Below, in pieces: positions 4,373-57,774 of a stretch of DNA of 64,000 nt. The DNA lies in sequence record OL780484.1; one strand, 5' to 3'. This DNA is from Escherichia phage vB_EcoM-E33. A program made the translations under genes and the position numbers. Each line of letters begins with the position of its first letter. Position 1 is the stretch's first letter. The notes under the pieces are model-generated. The model searched no databases, was not told where the DNA came from, and was given only the letters and a program-made list of their open reading frames with translations.

Positions 4373-5037
4373 TAATATAATCTCTTATAGTAATATAAAG
4401 GAATCGTGCCGTTAACTGTACCACCTGCTAACGATTGGGTAGAGTTACCTAAGTATTCCCACTTACCGTATCCAGCCCTTGGCTGTTGGACTATAGTATG
4501 GGAAATTGTACAACCCGATTGTTTATATGGTGAAAAAATATGATTCTGATAGTCATTGTATTTAATATTCAAGGTAGATTGGTCTAAGGCATCAATAGCA
4601 GTTTCGGCCAAAATATAGCTATTAGCAATAGCGTCTAAAAACACATCATTTACTTTAGATGCAACCAATACAGATGAATCGCCAACTAAGACCTCTACAG
4701 GAAGTCCGAACACTTTAATAATAACCGGGTCGCCAAGTTCACCGCCTGAAGAAATAGAACCGGTAAATGTAATTTTATCAGATTGCTGGATAAATCCAGG
4801 TGCTCTGTTTTCTGTGGTAATAATAACAGAGTTCACAGGAAGCTCTGTTCTAAATGCAATATCATCTATTGCACTTTGGACCGTAGGAAAATAAACACCC
4901 TTCTGAGTTTGGTTTGCAGAAGGACCACCGATAGGACGTTGGTCAGCGACAGCAGTAGGCTTGTCACTAGTGTAAGATAATTCCAAATAATCGGCTAAGC
5001 GGGATTTTAGCCCGCTTTTCATTTCAGTTAAAGTCAT
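4372..5037 (-). CDS. 11: baseplate wedge/short-fibre attachment protein gp11
   Basis: 221 aa; size and position between gp10 and gp12; SRLADYL and FGLPV motifs resemble T4 gp11. Confidence 0.8.
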   Translation of the reverse strand: MTLTEMKSGLKSRLADYLELSYTSDKPTAVADQRPIGGPSANQTQKGVYFPTVQSAIDDIAFRTELPVNSVIITTENRAPGFIQQSDKITFTGSISSGGELGDPVIIKVFGLPVEVLVGDSSVLVASKVNDVFLDAIANSYILAETAIDALDQSTLNIKYNDYQNHIFSPYKQSGCTISHTIVQQPRAGYGKWEYLGNSTQSLAGGTVNGTIPLYYYKRLY

Positions 5038-6848
5038 TATGCAATCCTCATCCAGCGATGAACAGTTAAGTATGGTGGTAGAGTATTAACCGGGATAGGA
5101 GTGGTTCCTTGAGCCTTATTAATACTGGCTTTATCTTCACGATATTTTGTATAAGCCGGTCCTTGTGAATCAGGGTCAACTAAACACCCACCTACAAAAA
5201 TAGGGCCATCGTTATCAGCAATAAGGACTTTATCATCGGTATTAAGTTCAGGGATATTCTCATATTTCAAATTAGCCACATGAGCGCCACCAGTACCGCC
5301 AGCAGTTGACTGTGGAATACCGGCAGAATCCAGATCGTTGTTATTTGCATTAAACAAAGAACTAGCGTCAGGAGACCAACCTACCAAGAACACATCAGAT
5401 AAACGCTTCCATGAACCAAAGCCCATATAAGTTTTAGGGTTATTAGGGTTCACCGTATTCTCATAGATGGTTCCTATTGGATAAACCAAATCAAAAAACG
5501 TTGCTGCTGTATCTATTGTAATATTGGACGCGGCGACCGGTTCAACGTTAGGTGCAAAAGGATTGTCTACATCAGTGATACGAACTTGACCTGTTATATC
5601 GATAGAAGGCCCTTTAGAAATATAGATGTTGTTGGTATAATCCAAAATCTCATCAATTTCCATGGTGGTACCGATATCATTATTGTACCAAATTACTGTA
5701 AGAATATCGCCGTGTTCAAAGTTACGTCCAAATTCAATAGATTCAATCTTGTCTTCAGGAGTCAAATTAAAAATATAATCTGATTTAGATTGGGTCCATT
5801 GACCACCAGCATTAAAACACTCGGTAGCAGTACGACCATCAGCACCTTCACAATAAAACGAAGGAAGTCCTGCTGTACCGGCTTGATGAAGTAATGTGCT
5901 ATTAAGCATGACTTGACAAGCATTTGGGTTGATAGGACTGTTAACAGAAATATTCAAATCAGCGGCTGATATAACATGCGAAGTATTCAAATCGGCTACG
6001 AAGGAAGAACCAGGAACAGAAACGTTTTTAGTCAATTCTGAACTTTGGATTGTTATATCACGGCGGTTATAAGAACTACGCCATTGGGCAAGTCCGTCAT
6101 TATATGATTTGATAATAACAGTATCACCTGCTTCACAAGGATATTTTAAACGGATGTCCTTACCATTCAAAGCTACCAATTCGCCCGGTTGAGCACCTGG
6201 AGAACCGAACTCTGCGGTAGCGGCATCAAAAATATCATCAACACCGTAGAACAAATTGTTACCACGTTGTGAAACGCTTAAACTCGCTACGTTATAAGAA
6301 AGCCCTGGGAAAATGTCTAGAAAATCTGTTTGGCCTTCAGTGGCAATAAACTGCTTAGTTGCTACAGTAGCGAGGTCGTTATTTGGAATACGGTTTACTT
6401 GCTTGTTCTCGACATATTCCCAACGTCCTGGGGCGCAATAAACTAATTCAAGGTCAGAGAAGTTGCGAGCAATTTCTACTTGAGTAGCTGAACCCTTAAT
6501 GGTATCACCCGTGGCAGGGATTAGGGTTACCGGGTTAGCTTGCCATGAAGAATACACGTCGCGTACACGGATAACAAAGTTATATTCTTCAGGAGAGCCT
6601 TTAGGAAGCTGAACGTTAATACGCCCACCTTGAGTATTAAGGGTATAGCTATGACCCATTACAGCGTTCAACAAAGCACCATCTGCAGTAGAATGCTGTT
6701 TCCAAGCGCCTGCTGCATGAGGGTTGTTGCCATCACCTAATTGGTAATAAAGCTCATTGAAGTTGTTATTAATTTTAAGACCACCTGCACGCAGGTAATC
6801 ACCGGACCCGTCATCAACAGCGGAACCTACTTTTAAGTCTTGTTTCAT
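5037..6848 (-). CDS. 10: baseplate wedge protein gp10
   Basis: 603 aa; MKQDLKVGSAVDDGSGDYLR..., ELVYCAPGRWEYV, YENTVNPNNPKTYMGFGSWK, C-terminal YTKYRE..VHRWMRIA match T4 gp10. Confidence 0.9.
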   Translation of the reverse strand: MKQDLKVGSAVDDGSGDYLRAGGLKINNNFNELYYQLGDGNNPHAAGAWKQHSTADGALLNAVMGHSYTLNTQGGRINVQLPKGSPEEYNFVIRVRDVYSSWQANPVTLIPATGDTIKGSATQVEIARNFSDLELVYCAPGRWEYVENKQVNRIPNNDLATVATKQFIATEGQTDFLDIFPGLSYNVASLSVSQRGNNLFYGVDDIFDAATAEFGSPGAQPGELVALNGKDIRLKYPCEAGDTVIIKSYNDGLAQWRSSYNRRDITIQSSELTKNVSVPGSSFVADLNTSHVISAADLNISVNSPINPNACQVMLNSTLLHQAGTAGLPSFYCEGADGRTATECFNAGGQWTQSKSDYIFNLTPEDKIESIEFGRNFEHGDILTVIWYNNDIGTTMEIDEILDYTNNIYISKGPSIDITGQVRITDVDNPFAPNVEPVAASNITIDTAATFFDLVYPIGTIYENTVNPNNPKTYMGFGSWKRLSDVFLVGWSPDASSLFNANNNDLDSAGIPQSTAGGTGGAHVANLKYENIPELNTDDKVLIADNDGPIFVGGCLVDPDSQGPAYTKYREDKASINKAQGTTPIPVNTLPPYLTVHRWMRIA

Positions 6849-7708
6849 TATACTGGAACTCCAATAGTTTGGGTTTCTACGACCTTAATTGCAAGCCTCA
6901 TAGGATTGACAGAAGAAGCGGTCGCGATAATATAGTTTGATGTATCGAATTTAAAATCTAGGGAATAAATTTCGTCATCATCTGAAGTTTGCCCACGTTT
7001 AATAACAGCGTATTCGGTGGAATAAATCTTTTTAGCTTGGTTGTCGATAAACACAAGATATTCTGAAGCTTTGTAAATGGTTTCGTTGGCATTCACTGCC
7101 GTAACTAAAAGTTTGACCAATGAATACTGGCCGGAATAAACCACCGGAATATCACGAGCGACAGAAGATATATTATATGTCTTATTTAATGGAACTCGTT
7201 TATCACCAAACATACTTTCAATTGAATAATCCCATACTGCAATGCCGTTTGTATCTGATACACACCATAAAAGAACTCGTGTATAAGGTGTTACGATACG
7301 CAAAGTCGAAGTTGAATGGCTTGCAAAAGTATCCAATATACGGATTTCAAGATAATTAGTGGAAGAAATACTCCCGTTAGAGTTGATAATCTCGATTCCT
7401 TCACCGACTGCACCTTTTACAGTGGTTAATACGATAGAACCGGTAGAAGCATCGATATCCACCAAAGAGCCTAAATCTACTGAGCTTGCTTGGTCCATAT
7501 CACCAAATTTTTGATAATAACCTGTAGCGTGTAATTTCTGACCGGTTAATTCACCAGTTAAAGCAGTTTTGCGTTGGTCGCCGAAAGTATTATATATGTT
7601 GTTTAAGTCAGTGTTCAGTTTAACACCGCCATCATAAAGAATGTCGCCGGTGCTGGCATTACCAATTTCACCGACGTCAATTAGTTCTTTACCAGTTTGC
7701 TTAATCAT
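6848..7708 (-). CDS. 9: baseplate wedge/long-fibre socket protein gp9
   Basis: 286 aa; IDVGEIGNASTGDILYDGG, HATGYYQK, WDYSIESMFG match T4 gp9. Confidence 0.85.
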   Translation of the reverse strand: MIKQTGKELIDVGEIGNASTGDILYDGGVKLNTDLNNIYNTFGDQRKTALTGELTGQKLHATGYYQKFGDMDQASSVDLGSLVDIDASTGSIVLTTVKGAVGEGIEIINSNGSISSTNYLEIRILDTFASHSTSTLRIVTPYTRVLLWCVSDTNGIAVWDYSIESMFGDKRVPLNKTYNISSVARDIPVVYSGQYSLVKLLVTAVNANETIYKASEYLVFIDNQAKKIYSTEYAVIKRGQTSDDDEIYSLDFKFDTSNYIIATASSVNPMRLAIKVVETQTIGVPV

Positions 7709-11889: not shown

Positions 11890-13848
11890 TTATATTGTAA
11901 TTGGTTCCAACTCTATAGTTGTGTACTGAGGACGAAGGTCATCTTCAAATACGATTAAAGAACCGTCTTTGGTAAAGATGTTGTCTTGGTCTGGCCCTGC
12001 ATAAAGTTCAATAGACTGGACTTCAAAACGGTCGGAAGTAAGGCCTATTGCGGCGATATCCCAGAAAATAAAGTCCGAGTAATAATCAATTTCGCCAATA
12101 ACATAGTAGACCGATTGGTCTGCAGGCGCTGCCATTTTATCGAAGTCATCTCCGGTGTAAGGTTGGATGTATTGGTTTTCAATTACATCGCCAGGTCGGA
12201 AAGGACCTATAACCATTTTACCATCGCCTCGTTCGTCTTTATCTGTGGCAACAATACGTACGTTGTAAGATTTAACAACATCGGATACGTTTGTTGGGAC
12301 GAACTCAAATTCACTAGAAGTTACAGAACGGTTGGTGTATTGATTATAGTATTTAATACCTGCTTCAGGTGTTTTGAAGAAGTTTAATACCTCGCGAACC
12401 ATTGTTACCGTAGCCGAAGAGCCAAGGATACTGTGGTCTGCATTATCAATATAAGTCAGCATTTTAGACTTGGCAAATCCGTGGTTGAATATTTCAACTT
12501 CGTTAATATAATAACGGTCTATTTGGGAAAGGATTTGAGCCGTTAACCATTGTTCGGATTCCTGTAATTTGTTCAGTGCATATGAAACCTTAATTTTATG
12601 CTTCAAGAACAAGTAGTCAGGAGAAATAACCGAAGGGGTAATAGGTGCCAAGTTAAATTCTGAAAGATAATTTTGGATATCTTCGCGTTGAACCGCAGTC
12701 AAATACAATCCTGATTTAGGTTTAATGGTAACAAAGGCATAACCTGGTTTATTTGGGTCTGTAAAGGTTTGTACTGCTTGTACAATAGAACCAAATCGCT
12801 CCGAAACGAATGTATCATAATCTGTACCGGTTACAGCACGCATCTGGGCTTCACGTTTAACTACAGCAAGTTCACGAATACGTTCAATATCTTCAGGGTC
12901 ACCACCACCGTCAGCACCTACATAATCCGGGTTTTCATCGTAGTTTTCTGTAATTTTTTCAACCGTAATATATGCCAAAGAATCCGCATAACTAAAGTCC
13001 ACCGCCCCGTTAGCAACTTCACCGTCTGTACGAAGGTATTCTATAACAATGGTGGCATCTTTAACAGGTTTTAAACCACCAATATAATTAGCTTCTAATA
13101 CCCCACCTGCAACTGATTTTTCAGCAACACCTTCACCAAAGAAGAATTCAGTATTACCATCTACGGTTTCACGCATATAGTAAATTGTTGATGTACTACC
13201 AGCATGAACCATGGATTTATTAGTCCAGTTAGTCCATTCTGCGCCATCGACATAAAGTTTAACTTCCTGTCTATCAATATCCGGGTCACGAATAAGAATA
13301 GGAGTTTTAGGGTCATACTTAAGTTCAGTACGGATAATACGACCTTGTGCTAAAGATACGATAGGAAGATATTGGTTATTAACATCACGTACGGCAATAA
13401 CGTTTTCCGTGGTAACAAAAGCATACGGGTCTGCTGAAGTATCACGGGCATAGGCCAAGAATTTAGTACCACGTGGGATACGAATATTCTTTTCATTCAG
13501 GGCTTGGGTACAGGTCAACATGATACTTGTTTTGGCTGCTGATTTAGAACTTGGCAAATAGCCGTTATCCTGTGCAGCCTGGACGACGGAGGAACGCAAG
13601 TTAGCAGTACCGATGAAAGATTCATATACCGCGGTATTAGCAAACTGCTGCATATACAGGGTGTTGTAAGCTAACATGTCAATCAGGATATTCATTCGCG
13701 AACCAACGAAATCGTAATCCTTAAATTCGTCCTGGCTAGAAAGCCAATCGATAATATTCTTTTTAATCTCTTCAAACGTAGCTCCCACAAATACTTTTGG
13801 GATAGCGTTAACGGTTCTTGTTAATTGGTAATTCGTAGGAGTAGCCAT
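11890..13848 (-). CDS. 6: baseplate wedge protein gp6
   Basis: 652 aa; position upstream of gp7 and length close to T4 gp6 (660 aa). Confidence 0.85.
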   Translation of the reverse strand: MATPTNYQLTRTVNAIPKVFVGATFEEIKKNIIDWLSSQDEFKDYDFVGSRMNILIDMLAYNTLYMQQFANTAVYESFIGTANLRSSVVQAAQDNGYLPSSKSAAKTSIMLTCTQALNEKNIRIPRGTKFLAYARDTSADPYAFVTTENVIAVRDVNNQYLPIVSLAQGRIIRTELKYDPKTPILIRDPDIDRQEVKLYVDGAEWTNWTNKSMVHAGSTSTIYYMRETVDGNTEFFFGEGVAEKSVAGGVLEANYIGGLKPVKDATIVIEYLRTDGEVANGAVDFSYADSLAYITVEKITENYDENPDYVGADGGGDPEDIERIRELAVVKREAQMRAVTGTDYDTFVSERFGSIVQAVQTFTDPNKPGYAFVTIKPKSGLYLTAVQREDIQNYLSEFNLAPITPSVISPDYLFLKHKIKVSYALNKLQESEQWLTAQILSQIDRYYINEVEIFNHGFAKSKMLTYIDNADHSILGSSATVTMVREVLNFFKTPEAGIKYYNQYTNRSVTSSEFEFVPTNVSDVVKSYNVRIVATDKDERGDGKMVIGPFRPGDVIENQYIQPYTGDDFDKMAAPADQSVYYVIGEIDYYSDFIFWDIAAIGLTSDRFEVQSIELYAGPDQDNIFTKDGSLIVFEDDLRPQYTTIELEPITI

Positions 13849-13849
13849 T

Positions 13850-15913
13850 TTAATTCCTAGTAGGAGATTCTAAACAAGGTATGCAAATGGAAAGGGATGG
13901 AAATGCAATCGTTAAACCGAATATTCCCAGCATCTTATTAATCCATTGTACCACCTTACTTAAGGATAATGTTGATATTTGGTTATACATTGATTTGCAC
14001 AAGTCTTTCATTGACCTGGAACCATCAGTAAATTCGTGATATAAAGATTTTGCTTTAGTTACTGAGTTCTCGTATATAACCATGATATCATCTACAGTAG
14101 CTCCGAGCATACCGAGAAGTTCTTCCATTTGAGCCACAATAGGAAGTTTTTTGAATTCTTCTAAAGCCATATCTAATACATCAGAAACGGAGGTTTGACT
14201 TTCGGTAATAGAGTTCTTAATCTGATTATATTTATTCTTTAAAAGTTCGAGTGCAGCTTCAGCTTGTGCTAATGCGGCTTCCTTCTGAGCAGTTAGCTCG
14301 TCTGTAACTTTTTCGTACATTCCTGAAAGATATTGTTTAAATTCAATAGCTTGTTTTTGTACTTCTTGCTTTTTGAGCTTAATCTCATTCCACAGATTGA
14401 GTGCCTGGGTTTTAAGAGCCTCAATCATTGCATAAGCTTCGTCTATTTTCTGGTCTACCTTTTCCATAACCATTTGATAAACATCTGATGCTGTGAATCC
14501 TGGAAAGTTACCGCTCATTATCATGTCCAGTGGTTTAACTTGCTTCATCATTTCCTTGACCGCAGTAATAACGCTCCAAACTGGGTTCGGAACTATAGGA
14601 GGCATACTCCATATTTGAGCGAGGTCTACACACAGTTTTGATAATGCAACACCAGCCATAAGCAATTGAGACCAGGCCCAGTCATACAAGTCTGTAATTG
14701 CATCAATAAGGTCACGCGAATACATCTTGACGCGTTCAACCGAATAATCGTATGCAGACCCAATGGCAGAATAAATCGATTGGATGGTTTCTTCTAAATT
14801 AAAGTTTTTCCATGCTTCTTTTAATTTCTGTACACCATCACCTGAAGTGCAGAGGTCTTCTAGGTCAATAGTCATGCCCATAATAGTAATCGAGGGTAAA
14901 AAGCTTTTAAGTAAGTCCCACCCACCGCCAACAATATTCAAGACCTGTGATATGGCATCTTTAAATGCAAGAAAAGCCATTTGCTGAACATATTGACACA
15001 TAGCAACAGCTGAGTTGCCTAGCTCTTCCATTGCGACCGATAGCTTACTATAACCAGAATCGAAGAATTTTTCCCAATCGGTTCCACCAGATGATGGCCA
15101 TCCAGGGAGCATATCCCAATATAATTTGAATGAATTCCTAGATGTATTCCATGAAGCCATAATCGCATTGGTCAATCCGTTGTAAGGGAATTCCGCTGTA
15201 AAAGGAACACAGCTTATTGCCCTGGCTCGCCCGGTTATTTCTGGCGGTAAAGACCCGATGGATACCGGTCCCGGAATCGGAGTTCCTGGGATACTCATAT
15301 CAACATCTAGATTTAATACCAGTCCAACATAAGTACAAGGTTTTGTCTCATAGTACTTCAAATAAGCCCTGCGGGAGTCACCAAGGCCGTTAAAGTTGAC
15401 ATACATATGATAATCAGCCGTAACTGCAATCATCGTCCTGGGGTCCATTCTGGGGCCTTGTGATGTCCATACACCGCCACAGTTTTCGATGCGATACATA
15501 TCATATTCAATAGATGTTTTATACAATACAGATTTTGATAAATCAGCGCCGTACCAATCATTACCGGGCAAAAGAGTTGCACCAATCGATTCTACATAAT
15601 TTTCTAAATCCAATTGCGTAATAAAGAATATTCCGAGTTTAGCACACCAGATACCTTGACTTGTTCCATCTTCCGGTGGGGGAGGTGCAGGAAAAGTTTC
15701 GGACTTATTACCAAATGGATTTTGTGTGTATAAATGTGTAGCTAGTGGAATAATCTCGGTATCCCATTCAACGCCATTCCCAGGTTGAATAAAAGCACCT
15801 GTTGGGTTATATAATTCCCATTTAACCCGGCGATATTCACCGGGTCCTACTGCGTCATCACAGGGACTTGTTACAGTCCCTACCACTTCATCAACTTTAT
15901 CGTAGTAATTCAT
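13850..15913 (-). CDS. large hypothetical protein in the gene 5.x slot (coiled-coil-rich C-terminal third, hydrophobic C-terminus)
   Basis: ORF track gives 13850-15937 with a GTG start; the ATG at 15913-15911 sits 1 nt after the gp5 stop (TAA-T-ATG) and gives 687 aa; its stop abuts the gp6 start. Confidence 0.7.
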   Translation of the reverse strand: MNYYDKVDEVVGTVTSPCDDAVGPGEYRRVKWELYNPTGAFIQPGNGVEWDTEIIPLATHLYTQNPFGNKSETFPAPPPPEDGTSQGIWCAKLGIFFITQLDLENYVESIGATLLPGNDWYGADLSKSVLYKTSIEYDMYRIENCGGVWTSQGPRMDPRTMIAVTADYHMYVNFNGLGDSRRAYLKYYETKPCTYVGLVLNLDVDMSIPGTPIPGPVSIGSLPPEITGRARAISCVPFTAEFPYNGLTNAIMASWNTSRNSFKLYWDMLPGWPSSGGTDWEKFFDSGYSKLSVAMEELGNSAVAMCQYVQQMAFLAFKDAISQVLNIVGGGWDLLKSFLPSITIMGMTIDLEDLCTSGDGVQKLKEAWKNFNLEETIQSIYSAIGSAYDYSVERVKMYSRDLIDAITDLYDWAWSQLLMAGVALSKLCVDLAQIWSMPPIVPNPVWSVITAVKEMMKQVKPLDMIMSGNFPGFTASDVYQMVMEKVDQKIDEAYAMIEALKTQALNLWNEIKLKKQEVQKQAIEFKQYLSGMYEKVTDELTAQKEAALAQAEAALELLKNKYNQIKNSITESQTSVSDVLDMALEEFKKLPIVAQMEELLGMLGATVDDIMVIYENSVTKAKSLYHEFTDGSRSMKDLCKSMYNQISTLSLSKVVQWINKMLGIFGLTIAFPSLSICIPCLESPTRN

Positions 15914-15914
15914 A

Positions 15915-17702
15915 TTAACCGACCTGTACGTTGCCACCAGATACTTTAGCTAATGAACCGCCATCCATATGCACAGTATTTGATGCGTTTAAATTAATGT
16001 TCGTCGCTGCAAAATTTAAATCTTGTTCGACATTTACATCCATATTTTGAGCATTGATTGTGGCCTTTTGTTTAACGCTTATATCTGCATTCTGGTTGAC
16101 ATTAACTGTTGTATCTTTTTCAACCGTAATATATGCTTCTTGTTCAACAGTTATATCAGCAGTACCCATAATAACTATTTTAACATTTCCTTTAACAAGC
16201 AGAGTTCCATTACCTTCTACAGTTTTGGTTTCATTCCCTCGAATATGAATGCTTTCAGACCCATCAGTTTGACGGCGCACGTTTGCCATATTATAATAGG
16301 TTTCATCGCCACCAACGTTGACTTTATTATTACCACCAACATAAGTATTTGAATCGCCTTGGGTCATATAATAACCATCGGCTACCGTCTTAGAAGTTTT
16401 ACGTCCATCAGGAGCAACTTCTTCATAACTACCGGTAGGATGGATTAAACGGTATCGTTCTTGCCCTGGGGTATTATCGAATTCTTGGATATGCCCGCCT
16501 TCAGTTTGCATGGTTTGGACATATGGATATTCGCCTTTATAACTAGAATCAGGTTCTTTAAAAAGAATCCTTGTGTCTTCTGGAGTCCACGGGTCGGCAG
16601 GGTCTGAATTTGTAGGGGCCACAAAGGTTTGAATCATTCTATACGAACGGCCATTAAATGACCTTTCTTTAGGGGCCATAATACCATATGATTCCATGTT
16701 ACCTGTGAGGATAATCATTGACACCCTTGATGCGCGACCTTTAGTTTGGTTAAACCATACTGAATTACGAGCTTCCTCAAATGCCTTTTTATAATCGCCT
16801 ATTAGCATTGCACTAAGCATTCCACGGAATTTAGCCAATCCACCTAATCCCATTTGGAAAGCCATGTTTTCAAGAGCCATTTGTCTTGAACGGTTTTCTT
16901 TATTGTAAACAGGACCTACAACACTATGCCGACCTATATCGTTTTGGACTTTTTTAAGGTCTTCTTGGAATAATTTAGAAGCCTCATCCATTGATATTGC
17001 ACCAGGGTTGCCTTTAACTTCTCGTCCTACCTGATTAGATAATATTTTGTTTATTCGATTCATATCTCTAATAGGTTGTGGTGTGATAAGGTGGCCTATA
17101 CCTATAGTAGGATAACCTTCGGTATCCCAATATACCTTCAGTCTAAGCCCTTCATCACGATGAAGCATGTTTTCTATTGTGAAATTAGGATTATCGTCTG
17201 GTTTGACTTGACTTAAATCCAACCCGTCAGGATTAATACCTACATCAGTGTTTGCATCTTGTATTACGTTAGAAGTGGCATCGTATCCAACTTCACCACC
17301 TCGGTTTAAAGCAGCAGCATCGTTACCTAAATAAAGCGGATATTGGCCTGTAGGGTCACTAAACCCTTCATTAGGATTAGCCTTCTGTCTTGAAGCGGAA
17401 CCGTATGTACCAAGGACAAGTCCGTTTAATTTCCACTTATCAAGAAAGTGACCATAAACTTGTGTACCGGGGACCATACCAGTCATAGCGGTTTGGATAC
17501 CTGAAACAGAGGCAGAAGATGTAGGCATTAATACCGACATCCATGGTAAATCTTCTGTACGAAGGCCTTTTACAGGGCCTTGTACTTTTTCATATGGATG
17601 CATACCCCATACGCGCACGCGTACTCGGCCTTGTTGGAGTGGGTCCATACGGTCTTCAACCACCCCTACGAACCAACTGACATTATCAGACATGTTAATC
17701 AT
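15915..17702 (-). CDS. 5: baseplate hub/cell-puncturing spike with lysozyme domain gp5
   Basis: 595 aa; N-terminal WFVGVVEDRMDP; lysozyme motif DEGL..WDTEGYPTIGIGH; C-terminal repetitive VxVxQ beta-helix segment. Confidence 0.92.
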   Translation of the reverse strand: MINMSDNVSWFVGVVEDRMDPLQQGRVRVRVWGMHPYEKVQGPVKGLRTEDLPWMSVLMPTSSASVSGIQTAMTGMVPGTQVYGHFLDKWKLNGLVLGTYGSASRQKANPNEGFSDPTGQYPLYLGNDAAALNRGGEVGYDATSNVIQDANTDVGINPDGLDLSQVKPDDNPNFTIENMLHRDEGLRLKVYWDTEGYPTIGIGHLITPQPIRDMNRINKILSNQVGREVKGNPGAISMDEASKLFQEDLKKVQNDIGRHSVVGPVYNKENRSRQMALENMAFQMGLGGLAKFRGMLSAMLIGDYKKAFEEARNSVWFNQTKGRASRVSMIILTGNMESYGIMAPKERSFNGRSYRMIQTFVAPTNSDPADPWTPEDTRILFKEPDSSYKGEYPYVQTMQTEGGHIQEFDNTPGQERYRLIHPTGSYEEVAPDGRKTSKTVADGYYMTQGDSNTYVGGNNKVNVGGDETYYNMANVRRQTDGSESIHIRGNETKTVEGNGTLLVKGNVKIVIMGTADITVEQEAYITVEKDTTVNVNQNADISVKQKATINAQNMDVNVEQDLNFAATNINLNASNTVHMDGGSLAKVSGGNVQVG

Positions 17703-18301
17703 AGCGCTTTTTCCATTTCTCTAATTAAAGCGGAAACAAAGGACTCGATGTCATTAGGGTCTATAATCTTTATTTCGCGCTTATATTCATTTTTACGAAT
17801 GGCGTCCTCGTAAATATCTACTGCAGCCAAAGGACCTTCATATTGAGGATAACGTTTTTCTGTATCACCTTTATCGTACCAAGTATAAGGATTTTCCGGA
17901 GTATTTACTAGATTCCAGAATTTCTCACCCTTTTCATTGACATGATAAAGGACTTGGTTTCCGCCTGCAGTAGCATAACGTTGAATAGCTGCTTGATACG
18001 CAGATTCTTGGCCTGTAATCCAGCCGTAATAAGGGTCATAGATATTGTTACACATTAAAAGGACCCAATATAATTGCACGTTACCATAAAGTTGATGGGC
18101 TAATTCTTCTGGACGAGGGGCCCCACTGATATAATATGTTTTAAGTGTATAATTTTTAGCCACTTTATCAAAATATTCTTTATAGTTTCTAAATATATCA
18201 GTCATCGGTACGCTCAGTACATCGGCATCAGTTAATGAGCCCGAATCCGGCTTGACTGTTTTTGATTCATAATTGATAGGATCGAAAAATGAGAAGAGCA
18301 T
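17699..18301 (-). CDS. 53: baseplate wedge protein gp53
   Basis: 200 aa; MLFSFFDPI..MTDIFRNYKEYF..YWVLLMCNNIYDPYYGWITGQE match T4 gp53. Confidence 0.9.
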   Translation of the reverse strand: MLFSFFDPINYESKTVKPDSGSLTDADVLSVPMTDIFRNYKEYFDKVAKNYTLKTYYISGAPRPEELAHQLYGNVQLYWVLLMCNNIYDPYYGWITGQESAYQAAIQRYATAGGNQVLYHVNEKGEKFWNLVNTPENPYTWYDKGDTEKRYPQYEGPLAAVDIYEDAIRKNEYKREIKIIDPNDIESFVSALIREMEKAL

Positions 18302-18346
18302 AGTGCCTCCGAGTATAAATAATATTAATATTTATAAGGAGGCACT
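18302..18346. promoter_or_regulatory. divergent late promoters (TATAAATA on both strands) inside a palindrome
   Basis: Plus TATAAATA at 18314-18321; minus TATAAATA (plus tatttata) at 18329-18336; flanked by inverted repeat agtgcctcc / ggaggcact that carries the Shine-Dalgarno (SD) sequence of each divergent gene. Confidence 0.6.
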
Positions 18347-18796: not shown

Positions 18797-19620
18797 GTAT
18801 ATTTTCTTACATCAACGAGGCTACTGAAACTACAAAAGGTTCCAAGCCTACTCGTTCAGAACAACAATGGATAACTTTAGGCGTTGAATATGCCAACGCT
18901 AAGGCTAAAGGTGTTTCGGCTAAGAAATTCGCTGAAGATAAAGGCATCAAGTATTCTAGCTTTACATCTGCGATGTCTCGATACTCGAGTCGAATTAAAA
19001 CTGCTGTACAGGTTGAAAAACTTCAGAAGAAACCTGGCAATAAATTAACCAAAGCAGAACGTCAATTAATTTTGGTGAATAGTTTTAGAAAGAGTATTCG
19101 CGATAAGATTGCTAACGAAGGCGCTGCCGTAAACAATAAATCAGCTAAATGGTTTACAGAAACATTAAAGAAAGGAATTCGTGGACACCAGGTATCTAAA
19201 CCGTCTCCTGGTAAGCTTTATGCTTATATCTATGATGCCAAACATAAGGATACCCTACCATACTGGGACAAATATCCTTTAATAATTTATCTTGGGTTAG
19301 GTAAGCATAATTTAATGTACGGACTGAACTTACACTATATTCCACCTAAAGCACGTCAGCAATTTCTGGAAGAATTGCTGAAGCAATACGCGAGTACGCC
19401 TACCATTACGAACTCGACTAAATTAAAAATCGATTGGAGTAAGGTAAAAGGATTCGCTGGCGCCGACGTGATGATTAAGGCTTATATCCCTGGAAATATT
19501 AAGGGACCTTTAGTAGAGATAAAACCGTCTGATTGGGCTAATGTAATAGGATTACCACTTCAGCAATTTGTATCGAAAGGTAAGCGTTATTCAGCTCAGA
19601 AAGTTTGGAAGAAGGCATAA
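18784..19620 (+). CDS. 2: probable gp2 (DNA end protector), assigned by position
   Basis: 278 aa basic protein between gp4 and gp3, size close to T4 gp2; alternative start ATG 18793 overlaps the gp4 stop (ATGA); no motif recognised. Confidence 0.55.
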
Positions 19621-20270
19621 TGAATTACCAGAAAATATATTCTTCATTAATTACACGTGCTCAAGGACGAGCACTATCCTGTTATACCGAATCTCATCAT
19701 ATTTTACCTAGATGTATGGGTGGAGGTGATGAATCTACAAACTTAGTTGATTTAACTCCTGAAGAACATTATTTAGCACATCAACTATTAGTTAAAATGC
19801 ATCCAGGACATCCTGGTCTAACTTTTGCAGCTATGACAATGACTCAAGGCCCTCGTCGTTCTAATAAGCTTTACGGCTGGCTTAAACGTAAGCACTCTGA
19901 GAATATCACAGCAACCCAAACAGGAAAGGTTTATTATAATAATGGCAAGAAGTGTATTAAGCTGTTTCCGGGTGAACCGATTCCTGAAGGATTTGTAAAG
20001 GGACGAGGATGGAGTCCTACAAAAGGAACCACTCATGATAGGAATAATGGCCGTTTTGCCAATAAAGAACTCCAAGCGGAGCTTTCTAAACGGAGATGGG
20101 ATAAAGCCAGAAAGGAAACTTGTGAACAATTTGGTGTGGATACTATAGAAGAGGCCAAGGATATGGTTCGGGCATTTAAAGCTACATGCCACGAAAGATA
20201 CTGGATAAAACCAACTATAGCCAAATGGCCTTTTATGACACCAGTAAGACTACGTGAATTTATAAAATAA
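19620..20270 (+). CDS. HNH homing endonuclease (free-standing), copy 1
   Basis: YTESHHILPRCMGGGDESTNLVDLTPEEHYLAH is an HNH motif; start taken at ATG 19620 overlapping the gp2 stop (TAATG); ORF track start 19605. Confidence 0.8.
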   Translation: MNYQKIYSSLITRAQGRALSCYTESHHILPRCMGGGDESTNLVDLTPEEHYLAHQLLVKMHPGHPGLTFAAMTMTQGPRRSNKLYGWLKRKHSENITATQTGKVYYNNGKKCIKLFPGEPIPEGFVKGRGWSPTKGTTHDRNNGRFANKELQAELSKRRWDKARKETCEQFGVDTIEEAKDMVRAFKATCHERYWIKPTIAKWPFMTPVRLREFIK

Positions 20271-21701: not shown

Positions 21702-22379
<678 letters not shown>

Positions 22380-22386
22380 GAACAAA

Positions 22387-32115: not shown

Positions 32116-32708
32116 TGGCCCTTTATGAACCTGGTTGTATGGGTATTGATACAAACTTCATCCGTCGGTCGGAAAATGCTGGAATTATTATCCCAAGTGG
32201 TGAGAATATGATTATTAAAAAGTCCTGGCGAAATATCGATGACTGTGATGAAGGAATTTCAGCCAGTACAATAGATTGGTCAGGTTGTACTGCCGAAATG
32301 AAACAGCTTTTAATTGAGGAATATAAAATGGGCTATATTGTAAACGGCTGGCAACCAGTAAAGAAAATCACTCGCACTGACGATAAGTATATTTGTCTCC
32401 AAGATGGAAAGGCCAGGCTCATTGATACTGAATGGCTTACGTTCGGACGATATGTTGTAGCGTATTTTATTACTTTACTTCCAATGTTAGTGCTGAGTTC
32501 ATTTTTAATCGATGCCAACTGGAATGATGCGCTAGAACGAACTATTATTGGCGCTGGATTAATGAACCTTGCCGCCGCTGGCGCTGCTTTAAGTATTTGG
32601 TGCTTGGCTATTGAAATGCCATGGCGTTTACGTCGTCAACAACGTCTTTACGACGAAGGTAAAATCAAACAGAATTTAAATGAGTTTATTGAGGAATGCC
32701 GTAAATGA
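32115..32708 (+). CDS. membrane protein (two C-terminal transmembrane helices)
   Basis: TAATG overlap with the upstream gene; hydrophobic YVVAYFITLLPMLVLSSFLI and IIGAGLMNLAAAGAALSIWCLAI. Confidence 0.55.
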   Translation: MALYEPGCMGIDTNFIRRSENAGIIIPSGENMIIKKSWRNIDDCDEGISASTIDWSGCTAEMKQLLIEEYKMGYIVNGWQPVKKITRTDDKYICLQDGKARLIDTEWLTFGRYVVAYFITLLPMLVLSSFLIDANWNDALERTIIGAGLMNLAAAGAALSIWCLAIEMPWRLRRQQRLYDEGKIKQNLNEFIEECRK

Positions 32709-41492: not shown

Positions 41493-41749
41493 TGGCTGTC
41501 GGTTTTGCGAAGGATGGAGCCGAACAGCTCGAAATGGAAGCTGTTGTACAAGCCGCTATCACCCATGCGAGAGCACAAGTGGCTGTTGAACGTGAATCCT
41601 CTGAATTCTGTTTTGACTGCGACGAAAAAATTCCTGAAGCGCGGAGACAAGCGATTAAAGGTGTGATATATTGTGTTGGTTGTCAATCAATGCATGATAA
41701 AATTTTTAAACGTGAGCCACGAAATTGTTGGCACAGGAGCATGAGATGA
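41492..41749 (+). CDS. TraR/DksA-like C4 zinc-finger protein
   Basis: CFDC-x5-IPEARRQAIKGVIY-CVGC: C-x2-C-x17-C-x2-C with the IPEARR motif typical of the TraR/DksA zinc finger. Confidence 0.6.
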   Translation: MAVGFAKDGAEQLEMEAVVQAAITHARAQVAVERESSEFCFDCDEKIPEARRQAIKGVIYCVGCQSMHDKIFKREPRNCWHRSMR

Positions 41750-41840
41750 TTTACTATCTTGAACCTTGGGCTTGGTTAACAATGACCGTAGGGCCTGTTT
41801 TAATTGGTTTATTCTTTTCGTGGTTGGCGAGGAAACTGTA
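41746..41840 (+). CDS. possible 31-aa hydrophobic peptide (not in ORF track)
   Basis: ATG 41746 overlaps the upstream stop (ATGA); MIYYLEPWAWLTMTVGPVLIGLFFSWLARKL; its TAA is followed immediately by the next ATG. Confidence 0.35.
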
Positions 41841-42038
41841 ATGTTATATGACCCGAGTGGTAATTCTGAAGATGGTATTATTGTCCTCTTGGCAGATGTT
41901 GAAGAATCCGACGATGACATCTTTGTTAAAGATTGGGAAGAAAAAGGTGGAATCACGCTCCAACAAGAAAATGATATGATTTGTCTGAATGCAAGCCAAG
42001 TTGAAGAGCTTTATAGTATTTTAAAACATAACCGTTGA
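41841..42038 (+). CDS. small acidic hypothetical protein
   Basis: ATG 41841 after ggcgaggaaactgta (MLYDPSGN...); ORF-track start 41766. Confidence 0.5.
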   Translation: MLYDPSGNSEDGIIVLLADVEESDDDIFVKDWEEKGGITLQQENDMICLNASQVEELYSILKHNR

Positions 42039-42048
42039 GGAATAGAAA

Positions 42049-42609
42049 ATGATTATTGAAACAACTGAATTGTTTGGCGAACTGTCCGCTGAAGTAGTTA
42101 ATAACGCAATTGAGCTTTCACAAGAAGACGATAAAATCGTACTGACTATCGCTGATATTAAACCGCTTTATGATTTAATGGTTTTGGATAGACACGATTA
42201 TCTTAATGGTCGTGCTAGTGCTCCTATTGATATCAATGATGATATGTATGCCTATATCTATAAAAACGAAAACGGGTTTAATCTGGAAAATGGTATTGAA
42301 TGTCTGAGCATCAGCGATTCTGATAAATTCTTTGATTGTATTTTCAAACTGTTCCAGGAAGAATGTAAGCCGGAAGTTGAATGGAAAGTCCCAGGCCAAG
42401 ATGCTGTGATTCGTTCTAGTGAAACGTTTGAAGGCACTGAAGAGGAATTAGATTATAATACTGAACTGACTGTGCTTCAACATAACGGCCGTGATTTGCT
42501 ATCCTTGACCCAAAGACACGACGGTGAAAATGAAGTGGTATTTACTAAGGACGAGCTCAAAGCTTTAGTCTCTTATCTGAACTCTGTTATCCCAACTATG
42601 AACTCTTAA
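42049..42609 (+). CDS. acidic hypothetical protein
   Basis: 186 aa; SD gagga then ATG. Confidence 0.55.
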   Translation: MIIETTELFGELSAEVVNNAIELSQEDDKIVLTIADIKPLYDLMVLDRHDYLNGRASAPIDINDDMYAYIYKNENGFNLENGIECLSISDSDKFFDCIFKLFQEECKPEVEWKVPGQDAVIRSSETFEGTEEELDYNTELTVLQHNGRDLLSLTQRHDGENEVVFTKDELKALVSYLNSVIPTMNS

Positions 42610-42619
42610 GGAAAATATT

Positions 42620-43078
42620 ATGATTATCAATGCAAACTCTTGGCATGTTAAACTACATGACCGTTTTTATGCCAGTTATTCACGTCCGCGCTCATTATGC
42701 GCATACTTCTGGAAAATGGTTTGGGCGTGCTTTATATGTTCTGTGCTTGCAGGTAGTACTATTTTCGGCTTAACTGTTGCAGGTGCCGGTATATTGGAGC
42801 AGTTCTTTGTATTGAGTACTCCTGTTGGTTTAAGTTTAGGTTTTATTTTAGGACTGGTTACACTAGCTCTTATTCTAGCGGTAGCCGTTGGTATTGTGTA
42901 TTGTATAATGAATTTATGGTCCTGGTATGATTTACGTAAAGAAGAAAAGGAATGGCTACTAATTAAAGCTAAACGTGAAGGAAAGGAAATTAAAGAAAAT
43001 ATCGTTATTCAATATATCAAAGCTCGTAAATCTAAGGTCTGCCCTGTAATCCACTTCGAGAACAAAACAAACCCATAA
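42620..43078 (+). CDS. integral membrane protein
   Basis: Several hydrophobic helices (FWKMVWACFICSVLAGSTIFGLTVAG, PVGLSLGFILGLVTLALILAVAVGIVYCI). Confidence 0.55.
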   Translation: MIINANSWHVKLHDRFYASYSRPRSLCAYFWKMVWACFICSVLAGSTIFGLTVAGAGILEQFFVLSTPVGLSLGFILGLVTLALILAVAVGIVYCIMNLWSWYDLRKEEKEWLLIKAKREGKEIKENIVIQYIKARKSKVCPVIHFENKTNP

Positions 43079-43842
43079 TGAATTATACCAAGCTTTATGA
43101 TAGTCTAATCCAAAGAGGTAAACTTAGAGGATTAGACAAATCCAAATTAAATTTTTATACAGAGTCCCATCATATACTCCCATCATGTATTGGTGGGAGT
43201 GATGAACCTAATAATTTAGTTCTGTTGACAGCCAGAGAACATTTTATAGCACACTGGCTTCTAGCTAGAATTCATTCTGATTCTTCTGGACTAATTTATG
43301 CTTGGTGGTCGTTTTATAGCTTCGGTGAGGATTCTCTAGGAAGAAATCTTAAACTAACTTCTAGAGGATACCAATTAGTTAGAGAAAAATTTTCAGAAAT
43401 TCATTCAAATGCGATGAAAGAAATATGGAAGACTGAAGAGTATAGAAATAAACGTTCTATAACTATGAGTCTACCGGAAATAAAAGATAAAATGTCTGCC
43501 GCTCAAATAGAAGCTCAAAACCGTCCTGAAGTTAAAGAGAAAATTTCTAAAGCTATTAAAGAAGCATTTAAACGCCCTGATGTTAGAGAAAGGCATTCTA
43601 ATGCTGTTAAGAAATCTCTAAATAATCCGGAAACTAAAAAGAGGCAATCTGATGCTTCTAAAGCAAAGCAAAGAATAGGAAAACATTGGCAAGATTATGA
43701 TTTGCTTTATTCTTTATGGGTTAAATTAAATAGGCCTAAGCGTGGGGCTTTTGGTACTTATATTAGTAAATTAGGATATCCCAAATCTAACTACCAACGT
43801 TTAATTATGCAATTTATTGAAGACTATGAAAGAGGTGAATAA
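43078..43842 (+). CDS. HNH homing endonuclease (free-standing), copy 2
   Basis: YTESHHILPSCIGGSDEPNNLVLLTAREHFIAH HNH motif; N-terminal ~60 aa paralogous to the 19620 endonuclease; C-terminal repeats NRPEVKEKISKAIK / RPDVRERHSNAVKK / NPETKKRQSDASK. Confidence 0.8.
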   Translation: MNYTKLYDSLIQRGKLRGLDKSKLNFYTESHHILPSCIGGSDEPNNLVLLTAREHFIAHWLLARIHSDSSGLIYAWWSFYSFGEDSLGRNLKLTSRGYQLVREKFSEIHSNAMKEIWKTEEYRNKRSITMSLPEIKDKMSAAQIEAQNRPEVKEKISKAIKEAFKRPDVRERHSNAVKKSLNNPETKKRQSDASKAKQRIGKHWQDYDLLYSLWVKLNRPKRGAFGTYISKLGYPKSNYQRLIMQFIEDYERGE

Positions 43843-44852
43843 TGAGAACAGTTATGAAGGGATATTTTGGCTCCCACCTTTATGGAACAAGTACTCCGGA
43901 ATCTGATGTCGATTTTAAAGAAATCTTTGTTCCACATCCGCGTGATATTCTGTTAGGTACGGCTATGAACCATACCAACCTGAATACGAATAACACTGCT
44001 TCCAAAAACACTAAAGATGATGTTGACCACGAGCTTTACAGTCTGAAATATTTCTTTAAACTAGCGGCTGATGGCGAAACAGTTGCTTTGGATATGCTCC
44101 ACACTCCACCTGAACTGGTGGTTAAATCTGATTTACCTGATGTATGGAAATTTATCCAGGATAACCGTTCTCGGTTCTATACAACCAACATGAAAGCCTA
44201 TTTAGGGTACGTCCGTAAGCAAGCTTCTAAATATGGTGTTAAGGGTTCTCGTCTGGCTGCTCTGCGTGGTGTACTGGCAATCGTTAACCAGATTCCTGAA
44301 CAGTGGGTTGACTATCAAGAAGGAATCCCTGATAGACTTCGTCGTACTAAGGTAGAAGATATCAAACACAGACTCCCTGAAAATGAGTTCTGTGAATGGG
44401 TATTCCATAACCATGAGAAAACAGGCCCTCAAACGTTCTATACTGTTCTAGGACGTAAGTACCAAACTACTTTGTCTTTAATCGAGCTCAAGCAATCTCT
44501 GAATAAGCTCGATGCTGAATATGGTGAACGTGCCCGTAAAGCTGAAGCTAACGAAGGTATTGACTGGAAAGCTCTGAGCCATGCTTATCGGGCTGGGTAT
44601 CAATTGTTGGAAATCTACCAAACAGGCGACCTGGTATTCCCATTGCGCGAAGCCTCTATCATTAAGCTGATTAAGGCCGGTGAACTTCCATTTAAAGAGG
44701 TCCAAGAACTTCTTGAAGACACTGTTGATTTAGTCGAAGTACTGGCTATCCAGGCTCATAAGAACGGTATGCCTGCTAAGGTAGATATGAAGTTCTGGGA
44801 CAAGTTTGTTGAAGAGGTATACCTTGACAACCACAACTCTTATTATCGATAA
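43842..44852 (+). CDS. nucleotidyltransferase-fold protein (RNA-repair-associated family?)
   Basis: N-terminus KGYFGSHLYGTSTPESDVDF fits NTase G[SG]x9-13DhD; 336 aa; ATGA overlap with the HNH gene. Confidence 0.6.
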   Translation: MRTVMKGYFGSHLYGTSTPESDVDFKEIFVPHPRDILLGTAMNHTNLNTNNTASKNTKDDVDHELYSLKYFFKLAADGETVALDMLHTPPELVVKSDLPDVWKFIQDNRSRFYTTNMKAYLGYVRKQASKYGVKGSRLAALRGVLAIVNQIPEQWVDYQEGIPDRLRRTKVEDIKHRLPENEFCEWVFHNHEKTGPQTFYTVLGRKYQTTLSLIELKQSLNKLDAEYGERARKAEANEGIDWKALSHAYRAGYQLLEIYQTGDLVFPLREASIIKLIKAGELPFKEVQELLEDTVDLVEVLAIQAHKNGMPAKVDMKFWDKFVEEVYLDNHNSYYR

Positions 44853-44859
44853 CGAAGAA

Positions 44860-45048
44860 ATGAAGGTCTTTTTATCATATGGAAGACCCCATAAAACCCG
44901 ACGTTGGTATCTTGAAGCTGTCTGTAAAGAAACCGGACGTCGAGTCAATATCAAGTACGCATGCAAACCTACGCCTAAACAGACAAGACGATTTGTTAAC
45001 TGGGCTGTAAATGATATCCGCTTCTATAATTTTTGGAGCGCAATTTAG
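44860..45048 (+). CDS. small basic hypothetical protein
   Basis: ATG 44860 (MKVFLSYGRPHK...) just after the upstream stop; ORF-track start 44806. Confidence 0.45.
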   Translation: MKVFLSYGRPHKTRRWYLEAVCKETGRRVNIKYACKPTPKQTRRFVNWAVNDIRFYNFWSAI

Positions 45049-45069
45049 GAACCTTCGGGTTCCTTTTTT
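45048..45069 (+). terminator. rho-independent terminator
   Basis: ggaacc-ttcg-ggttcc hairpin followed by tttttt. Confidence 0.75.
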
Positions 45070-45088
45070 GGGTTTAGTGCAAAAAGGT

Positions 45089-45117
45089 GTTTACAACCTC
45101 GTAGAGCATGATACTAT
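45089..45117 (+). promoter_or_regulatory. early promoter cassette
   Basis: GTTTAC 45089-45094, 17 nt, TACTAT 45112-45117, then agacctatcaa. Confidence 0.6.
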
Positions 45118-45165
45118 AGACCTATCAAATAAATGAACTGAAACAACTTAAAACGGAGATACAAA

Positions 45166-45420
45166 ATGAATATTAAAGCACCTTTCGCCGGTAATGTTAT
45201 TCGTGAAGATTCAATCGAAATCAACGGTGTGGTAGTTAAAGCGGTTTTAACTGATATCAAAACCTTGGTTAAAGTTGATTACTTAACCTTTAATTTCGAA
45301 AACATTGAAGGTTATATTAATTTCCCACCAAGCATTAAAATGCATGTACGCCATGAAACTTGGTCTAAAGCAGATCAGCAAAAAGCAGTAGATTTTATTA
45401 TTGAGTTCTTCTCAAAATAA
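45166..45420 (+). CDS. hypothetical protein
   Basis: 84 aa downstream of promoter. Confidence 0.5.
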   Translation: MNIKAPFAGNVIREDSIEINGVVVKAVLTDIKTLVKVDYLTFNFENIEGYINFPPSIKMHVRHETWSKADQQKAVDFIIEFFSK

Positions 45421-51855: not shown

Positions 51856-52032
51856 ATGAAAACTGAACTGATTTATACTGAAAAGTTAAATGGCGGTAAA
51901 GTCTGGAAACTTCTTATTAAAGGAAGTCCTACTGATCAGTTTATGGCCACTTGTGTAGGGTTATACACCCGTCCTACCAAAAAGATGATTCGTCAATTTA
52001 AACGGTTGCATCGCTCATTTTATAATGTTTAA
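51856..52032 (+). CDS. small basic hypothetical protein
   Basis: ATG 51856 (MKTELIY...); ORF-track start 51832. Confidence 0.45.
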   Translation: MKTELIYTEKLNGGKVWKLLIKGSPTDQFMATCVGLYTRPTKKMIRQFKRLHRSFYNV

Positions 52033-52070
52033 TAAATACCTATATCTAATTATTATTAAAGGTATAGGTC

Positions 52071-53144
52071 ATGCAAGATTTCGGACATTGGGCGGTATTT
52101 GAAGAAACCGATATTAAAAACCATATTGGATTTGTATACGTAATCACTTTTGAAGATGGCAAAAAATATGTGGGTGCTAAAAAGATTTGGAAACGAATTA
52201 AAGCTGCACCTTGCACATTTAAACGCGGCCCTAAAAAAGGATTTGAAGAATCTGATTGGAAAACCTATACCTCATCATCTAATGAACTAAACGCAATGAT
52301 AGAAAAGGGTATAAGTCCTAAAGAGTACCTTATTGTAGGATGGTATCCTACTTGGGGTAAAACTCTTATGGCAGAAATGGAAATGCAATTAGCCAATGAT
52401 GTTTTACGAGACCCTATGTGGCTTAACAAGCAAATTGGCGGACATTTCAACCCTAACTGCTTTGACGATTTAACCGAAGATGATATTGCAAGATGGATGG
52501 AATTTGATAAAGGGAACGAACATGTTTCCTGGCCTATGATGTACAAAATCGGTCAGAAAACCAAATATGTTAAACCTGACGAAGTTGGCAAGTATATTAA
52601 ATCTGGGTGGCAATTTGGTCGTTCTAAAACAGAAAAACATTCTGTTACCTATAATTGCTCTAAATTTACTATATGGGACTATCAAGAAAATAAAGCAGTG
52701 GAAGTTCTAAATCAAAATGAGTTTGCTCGTAATAATGATTTAAGTAGCAACCATCTAACTAGACTACTTCAAGGAACTCTCGACCTTATTAAAGATCGCT
52801 GGGGACTTCCACCAGATATTGCTCGTCAGCGTTATAAATTTCAGGACGTTTCTTCAGGAACAAAATTTTTATCTAATTCTGAGTTAGAAGAATTTTACGG
52901 TATGACTCGCGGTCAGGCTAACAAAGCCGTTAAAGATGGAAGAGCCGTTAAATTGGTAGTCGAAAGCAAAGAAGACCACATTAAAAAACTTGGCTCTATC
53001 GAATTGGTAAAAACCGAAAAGACAAAAGTTACGTCTCAAGTAATGCTTAACAGTTTTAAAGATATAGTTAATCCTATGACCACTGCCGAAAAATCAGAAA
53101 TGATTGAATGGTTGGAAAGTTATATAACTTATTTGAAATCTTAA
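52071..53144 (+). CDS. GIY-YIG homing endonuclease (Seg-like)
   Basis: N-terminal GFVYVITFEDGKKYVGAKK GIY-YIG motif; 357 aa with long C-terminal putative DNA-binding region. Confidence 0.75.
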   Translation: MQDFGHWAVFEETDIKNHIGFVYVITFEDGKKYVGAKKIWKRIKAAPCTFKRGPKKGFEESDWKTYTSSSNELNAMIEKGISPKEYLIVGWYPTWGKTLMAEMEMQLANDVLRDPMWLNKQIGGHFNPNCFDDLTEDDIARWMEFDKGNEHVSWPMMYKIGQKTKYVKPDEVGKYIKSGWQFGRSKTEKHSVTYNCSKFTIWDYQENKAVEVLNQNEFARNNDLSSNHLTRLLQGTLDLIKDRWGLPPDIARQRYKFQDVSSGTKFLSNSELEEFYGMTRGQANKAVKDGRAVKLVVESKEDHIKKLGSIELVKTEKTKVTSQVMLNSFKDIVNPMTTAEKSEMIEWLESYITYLKS

Positions 53145-57720: not shown

Positions 57721-57774
57721 GCTTTCTGAATGGATGATAAAATAAATCTATGAAATACATTATAAAGGTAGATT

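Follow-up and report, generated by a model that had tools for sequence, protein, structure and literature searches.

The gp5-gp6 interval of Escherichia phage vB_EcoM-E33 raises the question of what a single large gene is doing where T4 keeps its 5.1-5.4 locus. In the window studied here, a stretch of 64 000 nucleotides (nt) from sequence record OL780484.1, the slot between the genes for the baseplate hub gp5 and the baseplate wedge protein gp6 is filled by an open reading frame (ORF) of 687 amino acids (aa) on the minus strand, running from an ATG at 15913-15911 to a TAA stop at 13852-13850. A first-pass annotation made from the sequence alone had placed an ORF here, recognized no T4 homologue for it and suggested a spike-associated or ejected protein; our analysis confirmed its coordinates and placed it on the minus strand. 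When a contractile injection machine reaches its target membrane, the spike tip makes contact first. Most spike tips described so far are PAAR proteins, the other described type being fused iron-binding apexes, as in P2. We estimate a probability of about 0.75 that the ORF encodes an alternative, non-PAAR spike tip carried by some T4-like phages (the family of RB43 orf205w), capping gp5 in place of gp5.4.

The protein aligned with RB43 orf205w (YP_239181) at 43 % identity over residues 1-682 of 687 (BLASTP, E = 0), and phrog_5296, a family of 'unknown function', matched the same residues over profile positions 1-684 of 685. Full-length homologues were found by tblastn in 215 phage records, where the annotation is nearly always hypothetical, and a protein database search returned 62 homologous protein clusters, all of about 670-760 aa; the ORF is therefore not a chance reading frame. 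Nor is it a new kind of gene, because the family to which it belongs, although barely characterized, was already reported in 2025: Mattenberger et al. (bioRxiv 2025.08.28.672839; PMC12407873) proposed orf205w as a unique, 'putative' spike tip replacing gene 5.4. In that study RB43, RB16 and Lw1 were without gene 5.4, and their counterpart of the T4 5.1-5.4 locus held orf205w, a protein of about 690 residues of which residues 1-220 are mixed alpha/beta and the remainder helical. A map of the RB43 baseplate, obtained at 17.7 Å by cryo-electron microscopy (cryo-EM), revealed a larger object at the spike tip, and an AlphaFold model of orf205w, of low confidence, fitted this tip density (PMC12407873).

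The statement that the ORF has no T4 homologue was borne out. Pfam gave no family above threshold in the 687-aa protein, and comparison of the family profile with those of gp5.1 and gp5.4 (hhalign) returned probabilities of 0.1 % and 0.05-0.1 %, respectively. A fusion or expansion of gp5.1 was rejected on the gp5.1 comparison. A relocated T4 late protein or paralogue was likewise rejected, as a family hidden Markov model searched against all six-frame ORFs of the window and of Escherichia phage WG01 (Dhakavirus) found only the gene itself. WG01 is the closest sequenced relative (99.5 % DNA identity over the region). Phage Bp7 encodes a protein 100 % identical to the ORF product, although the DNA around it shows only 95.7 % identity.

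The first line of evidence for a role at the spike comes from close relatives of the phage. In QL01 and PSD9, the latter classified in the same species as WG01, the slot that holds the ORF in the window is occupied by gp5.1 (165 aa) and gp5.4 (97 aa, PAAR). Alignment of the window with QL01 showed about 98.6 % identity up to position 13859 and from position 16146 on, with unrelated sequence between. The counterpart in QL01 and PSD9 is a 1009 bp cassette made up of a T4-type gp5 tip, gp5.1 and gp5.4. The aligned sequences part within gene 5 at the right-hand breakpoint, near residue 519, so that what is exchanged comprises the final ~77 residues of the gp5 beta-helix together with the tip gene or genes. 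As close Dhakavirus relatives keep gp5.1 and gp5.4, the ORF is one allele of a polymorphic cassette rather than a fixed trait. We rejected a recent import of the cassette from a source of foreign composition, its GC content being 39.7 % against 39.3 % for the window. This within-species polymorphism, with a breakpoint inside gp5, is a new point of the present analysis.

The gp5 protein itself records the same exchange. It is 595 aa long in the window and 580 aa in QL01. Over its body (residues 1-480), window gp5 is 100 % identical to that of QL01 and 65 % identical to that of the Tequatrovirus PD112, whereas over the last 77 aa identity is 27 % to QL01, 40 % to RB43 and 91 % to PD112, which indicates that the gp5 tip travels with the ORF and not with the gp5 body. 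Window and RB43 gp5 align up to the C-terminus and have the end ...GGxVQVG in common, and the gp5 of all carriers ends ...GxLxK(V/I)(S/T)GxxVQVG. Among 38 complete gp5 loci from IMG/VR, the RB43-type tip was found with a gene of the ORF family and without gp5.1 or gp5.4 in seven, the T4-type tip with both gp5.1 and gp5.4 and without the ORF family gene in the other 31, and a mixed combination in none. Searches with QL01 queries through the complete genome of WG01 and through the window detected no homologue of gp5.4 or gp5.1 (tblastn and phmmer; best E = 0.048), and neither gene is listed in the WG01 genome annotation. Taken together, the swap, the co-variation across the 38 loci and the absence of gp5.4 are strong genetic evidence that the ORF product acts in concert with the distal gp5 end and replaces gp5.4 in its role. 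The earlier suggestion of a spike-associated protein thus gains support from exclusivity with gp5.4, from strict co-variation with the gp5 tip and from the low-resolution cryo-EM tip mass of the RB43 homologue, and the putative attachment of the product to the spike tip is well supported. Binding to the blunt end of the trimeric beta-helical spike is indirectly supported, through the gp5-tip co-variation.

Across the wider family the gene keeps company with gp5. Carrier genera among the examples examined were Dhakavirus, Tequatrovirus (PD112), Moonvirus, Bragavirus, Nanhuvirus and Pseudotevenvirus; the matches also included phages of the KP15 group, which we take to be Slopekvirus. The order of gp5, the ORF homologue and then gp6 was also seen in RB43, PD112, KM16 and phiP4-3. 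In Cronobacter phage LPCS28 (Nanhuvirus; our locus L051) the homologue still adjoins gp5, although gp6 is no longer next to it, and this indicates that the linkage is to gp5. At positions 4562-7067 of that locus, small hypothetical genes on the opposite strand replace gp6-gp7 downstream of the homologue, so that the baseplate gene block is split in Nanhuvirus. A profile search with the N-terminal domain against 1.84 billion representative proteins returned 12 clusters only, of 670-760 aa or fragments, and each cluster with examined context comes after gp5. The two most divergent homologues also stand directly after a gp5 ending ...FTGGTVxVG. In one of these distant carriers, from JGI metagenome 3300076144 (locus L053, 219-1388), the gp5 before the homologue is just 389 aa long and ends ...FTGGTVVVG; Gp5_OB is the sole Pfam family on this record, and the protein is too short for a lysozyme domain. 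Two copies of the family gene were irregular. Phage phT4A (NC_055712.1) matches only residues 193-682 of the ORF, with a product of 485 aa in BFVD, and in kp20 (PP993148.1) the match is split into two pieces in two coding sequences annotated 'hypothetical protein'. These may be truncated or frameshifted genes, or sequencing errors.

AlphaFold2, run with a 61-sequence alignment, gave a model with a mean predicted local distance difference test (pLDDT) score of 87 and a predicted template modelling (pTM) score of 0.78. The predicted layout is an alpha/beta region at about residues 1-265, a linker of lower confidence (266-293), a helical region (294-664) in which helices of 55 and 38 residues form a hairpin, and a C-terminal beta-strand (673-682). 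When the N-terminal region was modelled alone, residues 20-200 stayed above a pLDDT of 90 and residues 200-292 lost confidence, suggesting that the latter have the helical region or the C-terminal strand as a packing partner. No structural relative of the N-terminal region was found in the PDB or BFVD beyond its own family, and neither PAAR nor any solved structure shares its predicted fold. PDB sequences, when searched by profile, yielded coiled-coil noise only, fold and profile matches of the helical region were all to generic coiled coils or helical hairpins, and Pfam searches of 61 family members gave scattered coiled-coil noise and no PAAR, enzymatic or toxin domain.

The compositional features remarked upon in the first-pass annotation were real. 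The N-terminal part is rich in glycine and proline (9.6 % and 8.6 % in residues 1-292, compared with 2.9-5.6 % and 1.4-3.9 % elsewhere in the protein), and the heptad-rich stretch lies inside the predicted 55-residue helix, with 81 % of its a/d positions hydrophobic. The hydrophobic tail also exists and is conserved in the family (Kyte-Doolittle 19-residue mean of 1.87 for residues 662-680; 1.77 for the family), but it is predicted with high confidence as coil at 665-672 followed by a beta-strand at 673-682 of the folded protein, rather than as a free membrane anchor; the tail at 662-682 is therefore modelled as a helix end, a coil and a strand. It may be buried in the fold, judging from secondary structure and pLDDT only. 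The best-conserved parts of the family are the core of the N-terminal domain, the helical region at 294-470 and the helices at 631-664. The hairpin (475-575) and the linker (266-293) are the most variable, each with 31 % identity among distant members, and the hairpin has no indel in the 61 sequences. Among the cysteines, C18 and C193 do not vary at all and C235, C639 and C677 hardly vary, whereas no histidine is conserved.

Compared with RB43 orf205w, the ORF encodes a protein of similar length (687 aa against 690), lies directly after a gp5 with an RB43-type C-terminus, with no gene 5.4 in the window or in WG01, and has the same order of an alpha/beta N-terminal part and a helical remainder. 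It differs in belonging to a Dhakavirus (subfamily Tevenvirinae), whose close relatives carry gp5.1/gp5.4, and in its confident model, that of orf205w having been of low confidence. With T4 gp5.4 (PDB 4KU0) and the PAAR tips of type VI secretion systems (T6SS) it shares the genomic slot and probably also the partner, a trimeric beta-helical spike to whose flat end it would bind, and it is mutually exclusive with gp5.4 in genomes. It has no PAAR signature, no gp5.4 homology and no fold resembling the small conical beta-structure. The apical metal site of gp5.4 consists of three histidines and one cysteine; in the ORF family, which has conserved cysteines and no conserved histidine, a Cys-based site or disulfides would be conceivable. 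T4 gp5.1, to which homology was undetectable, is lost along with gp5.4 wherever the family gene is present. PAAR domains occur with varied C-terminal cargo and the N-terminal domain of the ORF does not; a PAAR-like modular adaptor with variable cargo was rejected, as the 12 clusters of the domain search had one architecture. The fused P2 gpV-type apex, with its HxH iron site, also caps the end of a beta-helix, whereas the ORF tip would be a separate polypeptide and window gp5, ending ...SGGNVQVG, has no HxH near its C-terminus. On the spike-tip reading, the ORF family is a third, unrelated solution to building a spike tip.

As a mechanism, we propose that the tip protein would be made late, from one transcript with gp53, gp5 and gp6, and be translationally coupled to gp5. 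Its site of attachment would be the blunt C-terminal end of the trimeric gp5 beta-helix, where the 97-aa PAAR-like gp5.4 sits in T4. Conservation suggests that the N-terminal alpha/beta region, a candidate gp5-docking domain, and the conserved helical core would dock on the gp5 platform, with the hairpin of ~8 nm, variable in sequence and fixed in length, probably projecting forward as the leading end. On contraction of the sheath the tip would be the first virion part driven into the outer membrane. The P2 spike is released into the periplasm (PMC12407873), and by analogy with its fate the tip may be ejected there together with the spike. In the periplasm, more speculatively, the envelope may be a target of the helical bundle and of the conserved hydrophobic segment at the C-terminus. 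The stoichiometry, orientation, ejection and membrane activity of the protein are thus what we infer, rather than observe.

Several points weigh against a spike-tip identity. The orf205w-gp5 complex could not be produced, the published assignment is worded as 'possibly' and 'putative', and the RB43 baseplate map, at just 17.7 Å, was C6-symmetrized (PMC12407873). The longer gp5 beta-helix of the carriers could itself explain part of the extra tip density, and a mostly helical protein of 77 kDa is an odd 'sharpening' device. Our literature search found no virion proteome of any carrier phage and no direct evidence of the protein or a homologue in virions; the ValerieMcCarty phages with mass spectrometry data are Jiaodavirus, a genus outside those in which the gene was found, and papers that cite WG01 and QL01 do so for the original host-range work only, with nothing on the spike-tip locus. 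The lack of proteomic detection would also suit a non-structural assembly factor or chaperone that folds or caps the RB43-type gp5 end and is not kept in the virion. A dedicated chaperone would be expected to co-vary with the gp5 tip too, and the cassette also replaces gp5.1. However, RB43 virions show extra tip mass for which the locus offers no other candidate gene, the beta-helix end of the carriers would stay uncapped without gp5.4, and a confident two-part fold of 687 aa is large for serving a 77-residue segment. We consider such a factor improbable.

The co-variation bears differently on a tape-measure-like or internal ejection protein residing in the lumen of the tail tube or in the hub, which would not be expected to track the distal 77 residues of gp5 or to exclude gp5.4. 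Some annotation points that way, the Roth90 homologue being named 'tail length tape measure' and the VAC66 homologue 'baseplate hub structural protein' in GenBank, and the helical half has weak PHROG matches (best E = 4e-4, with no stretch passing alone). These matches are sub-threshold and limited to coiled-coil-like sequence, a gp29 'hub subunit and tail length' gene is present separately in the genome, and the ORF has no paralogue there. A tape-measure identity was rejected on the weak, coiled-coil-only matches and the presence of gp29, and a protein of the tube lumen or hub seems very improbable. A delivered effector, riding on the spike like the PAAR-linked toxins of T6SS and working in the periplasm or inner membrane as a channel, in superinfection block or in anti-defence rather than in penetration, seems quite unlikely to us. 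Its fold matches were no better than those to designed bundles or prefoldin (4-14 % identity), a match to Hbl B had no stretch passing alone, and no specific sequence or fold similarity was seen to alpha pore-forming toxins of the ClyA/Hbl type, that is, to a ClyA-family bundle with a hydrophobic head. The absence of enzymatic and toxin domains from the query and the 61 family members, together with an N-terminal domain never joined to other C-terminal cargo in its 12 clusters, also argues against an effector. An alternative spike tip accounts better than any of these three explanations for the co-variation, the missing gp5.4 and the RB43 density.

The setting of the gene agrees with expression alongside the baseplate genes. 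The first-pass annotation had described the ORF as coupled to gp5 through TAA-T-ATG and as abutting the gp6 start, and both junctions were verified: on the coding strand they read ...CAG GTC GGT TAA T ATG (gp5/ORF) and ...AGG AAT TAA A ATG (ORF/gp6). An alternative GTG start in frame at 15937 would give 695 aa. The ATG is favoured, as the family alignment begins there with a nearly invariant M1 (N-terminus MNY...), and the WG01 copy is likewise annotated from the ATG. Pfam identified the neighbours as gp53, gp5 (OB, lysozyme and beta-helix domains), gp6 and gp7. The late promoter motif before gene 53 (Table 1) is probably the promoter of the block containing the ORF, an assignment made by position only: the window holds six copies of TATAAATA against 7.8 expected by chance, so that position alone argues for promoter function. 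Between this motif and the ORF there was no gap and no convincing terminator. At 18314-18336, in the 45-bp gap between gene 53 (minus strand) and gene 4 (plus strand), two copies of TATAAATA lie on opposite strands, 8 nt apart, in what looks like a divergent late-promoter pair.

Table 1. Position of the ORF, its predicted regions and the neighbouring features in the window
Feature	Coordinates	Strand	Remarks
687-aa ORF, RB43 orf205w orthologue, phrog_5296; putative alternative spike tip	13850..15913	-	Stop codon 13850-13852
N-terminal alpha/beta region, residues 1-292	15038..15913	-	Core residues 20-200 with pLDDT >90
Helical region, residues 294-664, with long helices in a bundle	13922..15034	-	AlphaFold2 model
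Long helical hairpin, residues 475-575	14189..14491	-	Strong heptad pattern
Conserved hydrophobic, proline-containing C-terminal segment, residues 662-682	13868..13930	-	Coil 665-672, beta-strand 673-682, pLDDT 90-92
RB43-type C-terminal gp5 beta-helix tip, about the last 77 residues, ending ...SGGNVQVG	15915..16145	-	Exchanged together with the ORF
Exchangeable 'spike-tip cassette', gp5 tip and ORF, 2286 bp	13860..16145	-	QL01 alignment
gp5 baseplate hub/tail lysozyme spike, 595 aa, OB, lysozyme and beta-helix domains	15915..17702	-	
gp6 baseplate wedge gene, start 1 nt past the ORF stop	11890..13848	-	
gp53 baseplate wedge gene, leading the 53-5-ORF-6-7 block	17699..18301	-	
Late promoter motif of T4 type, TATAAATA, lying 28 nt upstream of the ATG of gene 53	18329..18336	-	

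Further variation was seen in and around this slot. Among the gp5.4-type loci from IMG/VR, two (L020 and L028) have ~600-700 bp of extra DNA between gp5.1 and gp5.4 and one (L012) has a similar amount between gp5.4 and gp6, which suggests a general hot spot for insertions in the gp5-gp6 slot. Just past gene 2 (DNA end protector), the window has a 221-aa ORF on the plus strand with a TTG start (19605-20270), which matches the homing endonuclease family phrog_655 (E = 2e-56) and coincides with an insertion of ~640 bp relative to WG01 (alignment gap 19628-20266). QL01 has a homing endonuclease annotated at this site. It is speculation that this gene, ~3.7 kb from the spike-tip cassette, promotes exchange of nearby markers. 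Outside the baseplate block, the window from 20267 to 64000 is mosaic in comparison with WG01, with alignment gaps at approximately 22378-23221, 32355-32684, 43067-43840, 44847-45412, 52025-53144 and 57747-58107, and with identity of just ~88 % across 41726-44846; the window thus comes from an isolate distinct from WG01.

In summary, besides the within-species cassette, our study contributes an exception-free co-variation between gp5 tip and tip gene, a confident structural model and an N-terminal domain predicted to be unrelated to PAAR or to solved folds. The annotation of the family stands to benefit, as 215 phage records call the gene 'hypothetical' and two mis-name it. The gp5 boundary at about residue 519 defines a fragment partner for the tip protein and may solve the complex-production problem met for RB43. 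WG01-type and QL01/PSD9-type phages, with flanks about 98.6 % identical and different tip cassettes, constitute a natural experiment, and the role of the tip type in envelope penetration is therefore testable with near-isogenic phages. A dependence on deep-rough lipopolysaccharide (LPS) has been reported for gp5.4. We tentatively suggest, as a doubtful possibility, that two interchangeable and unrelated tip systems swap with the gp5 end, and that the large helical tip is membrane-active, its fixed-length hairpin serving as a 'needle' and its hydrophobic C-terminal segment being releasable, to open or condition the envelope. The type of tip would then set which LPS, capsule or envelope variants a phage can penetrate and, if this is true, would be a determinant of host range acting after adsorption.

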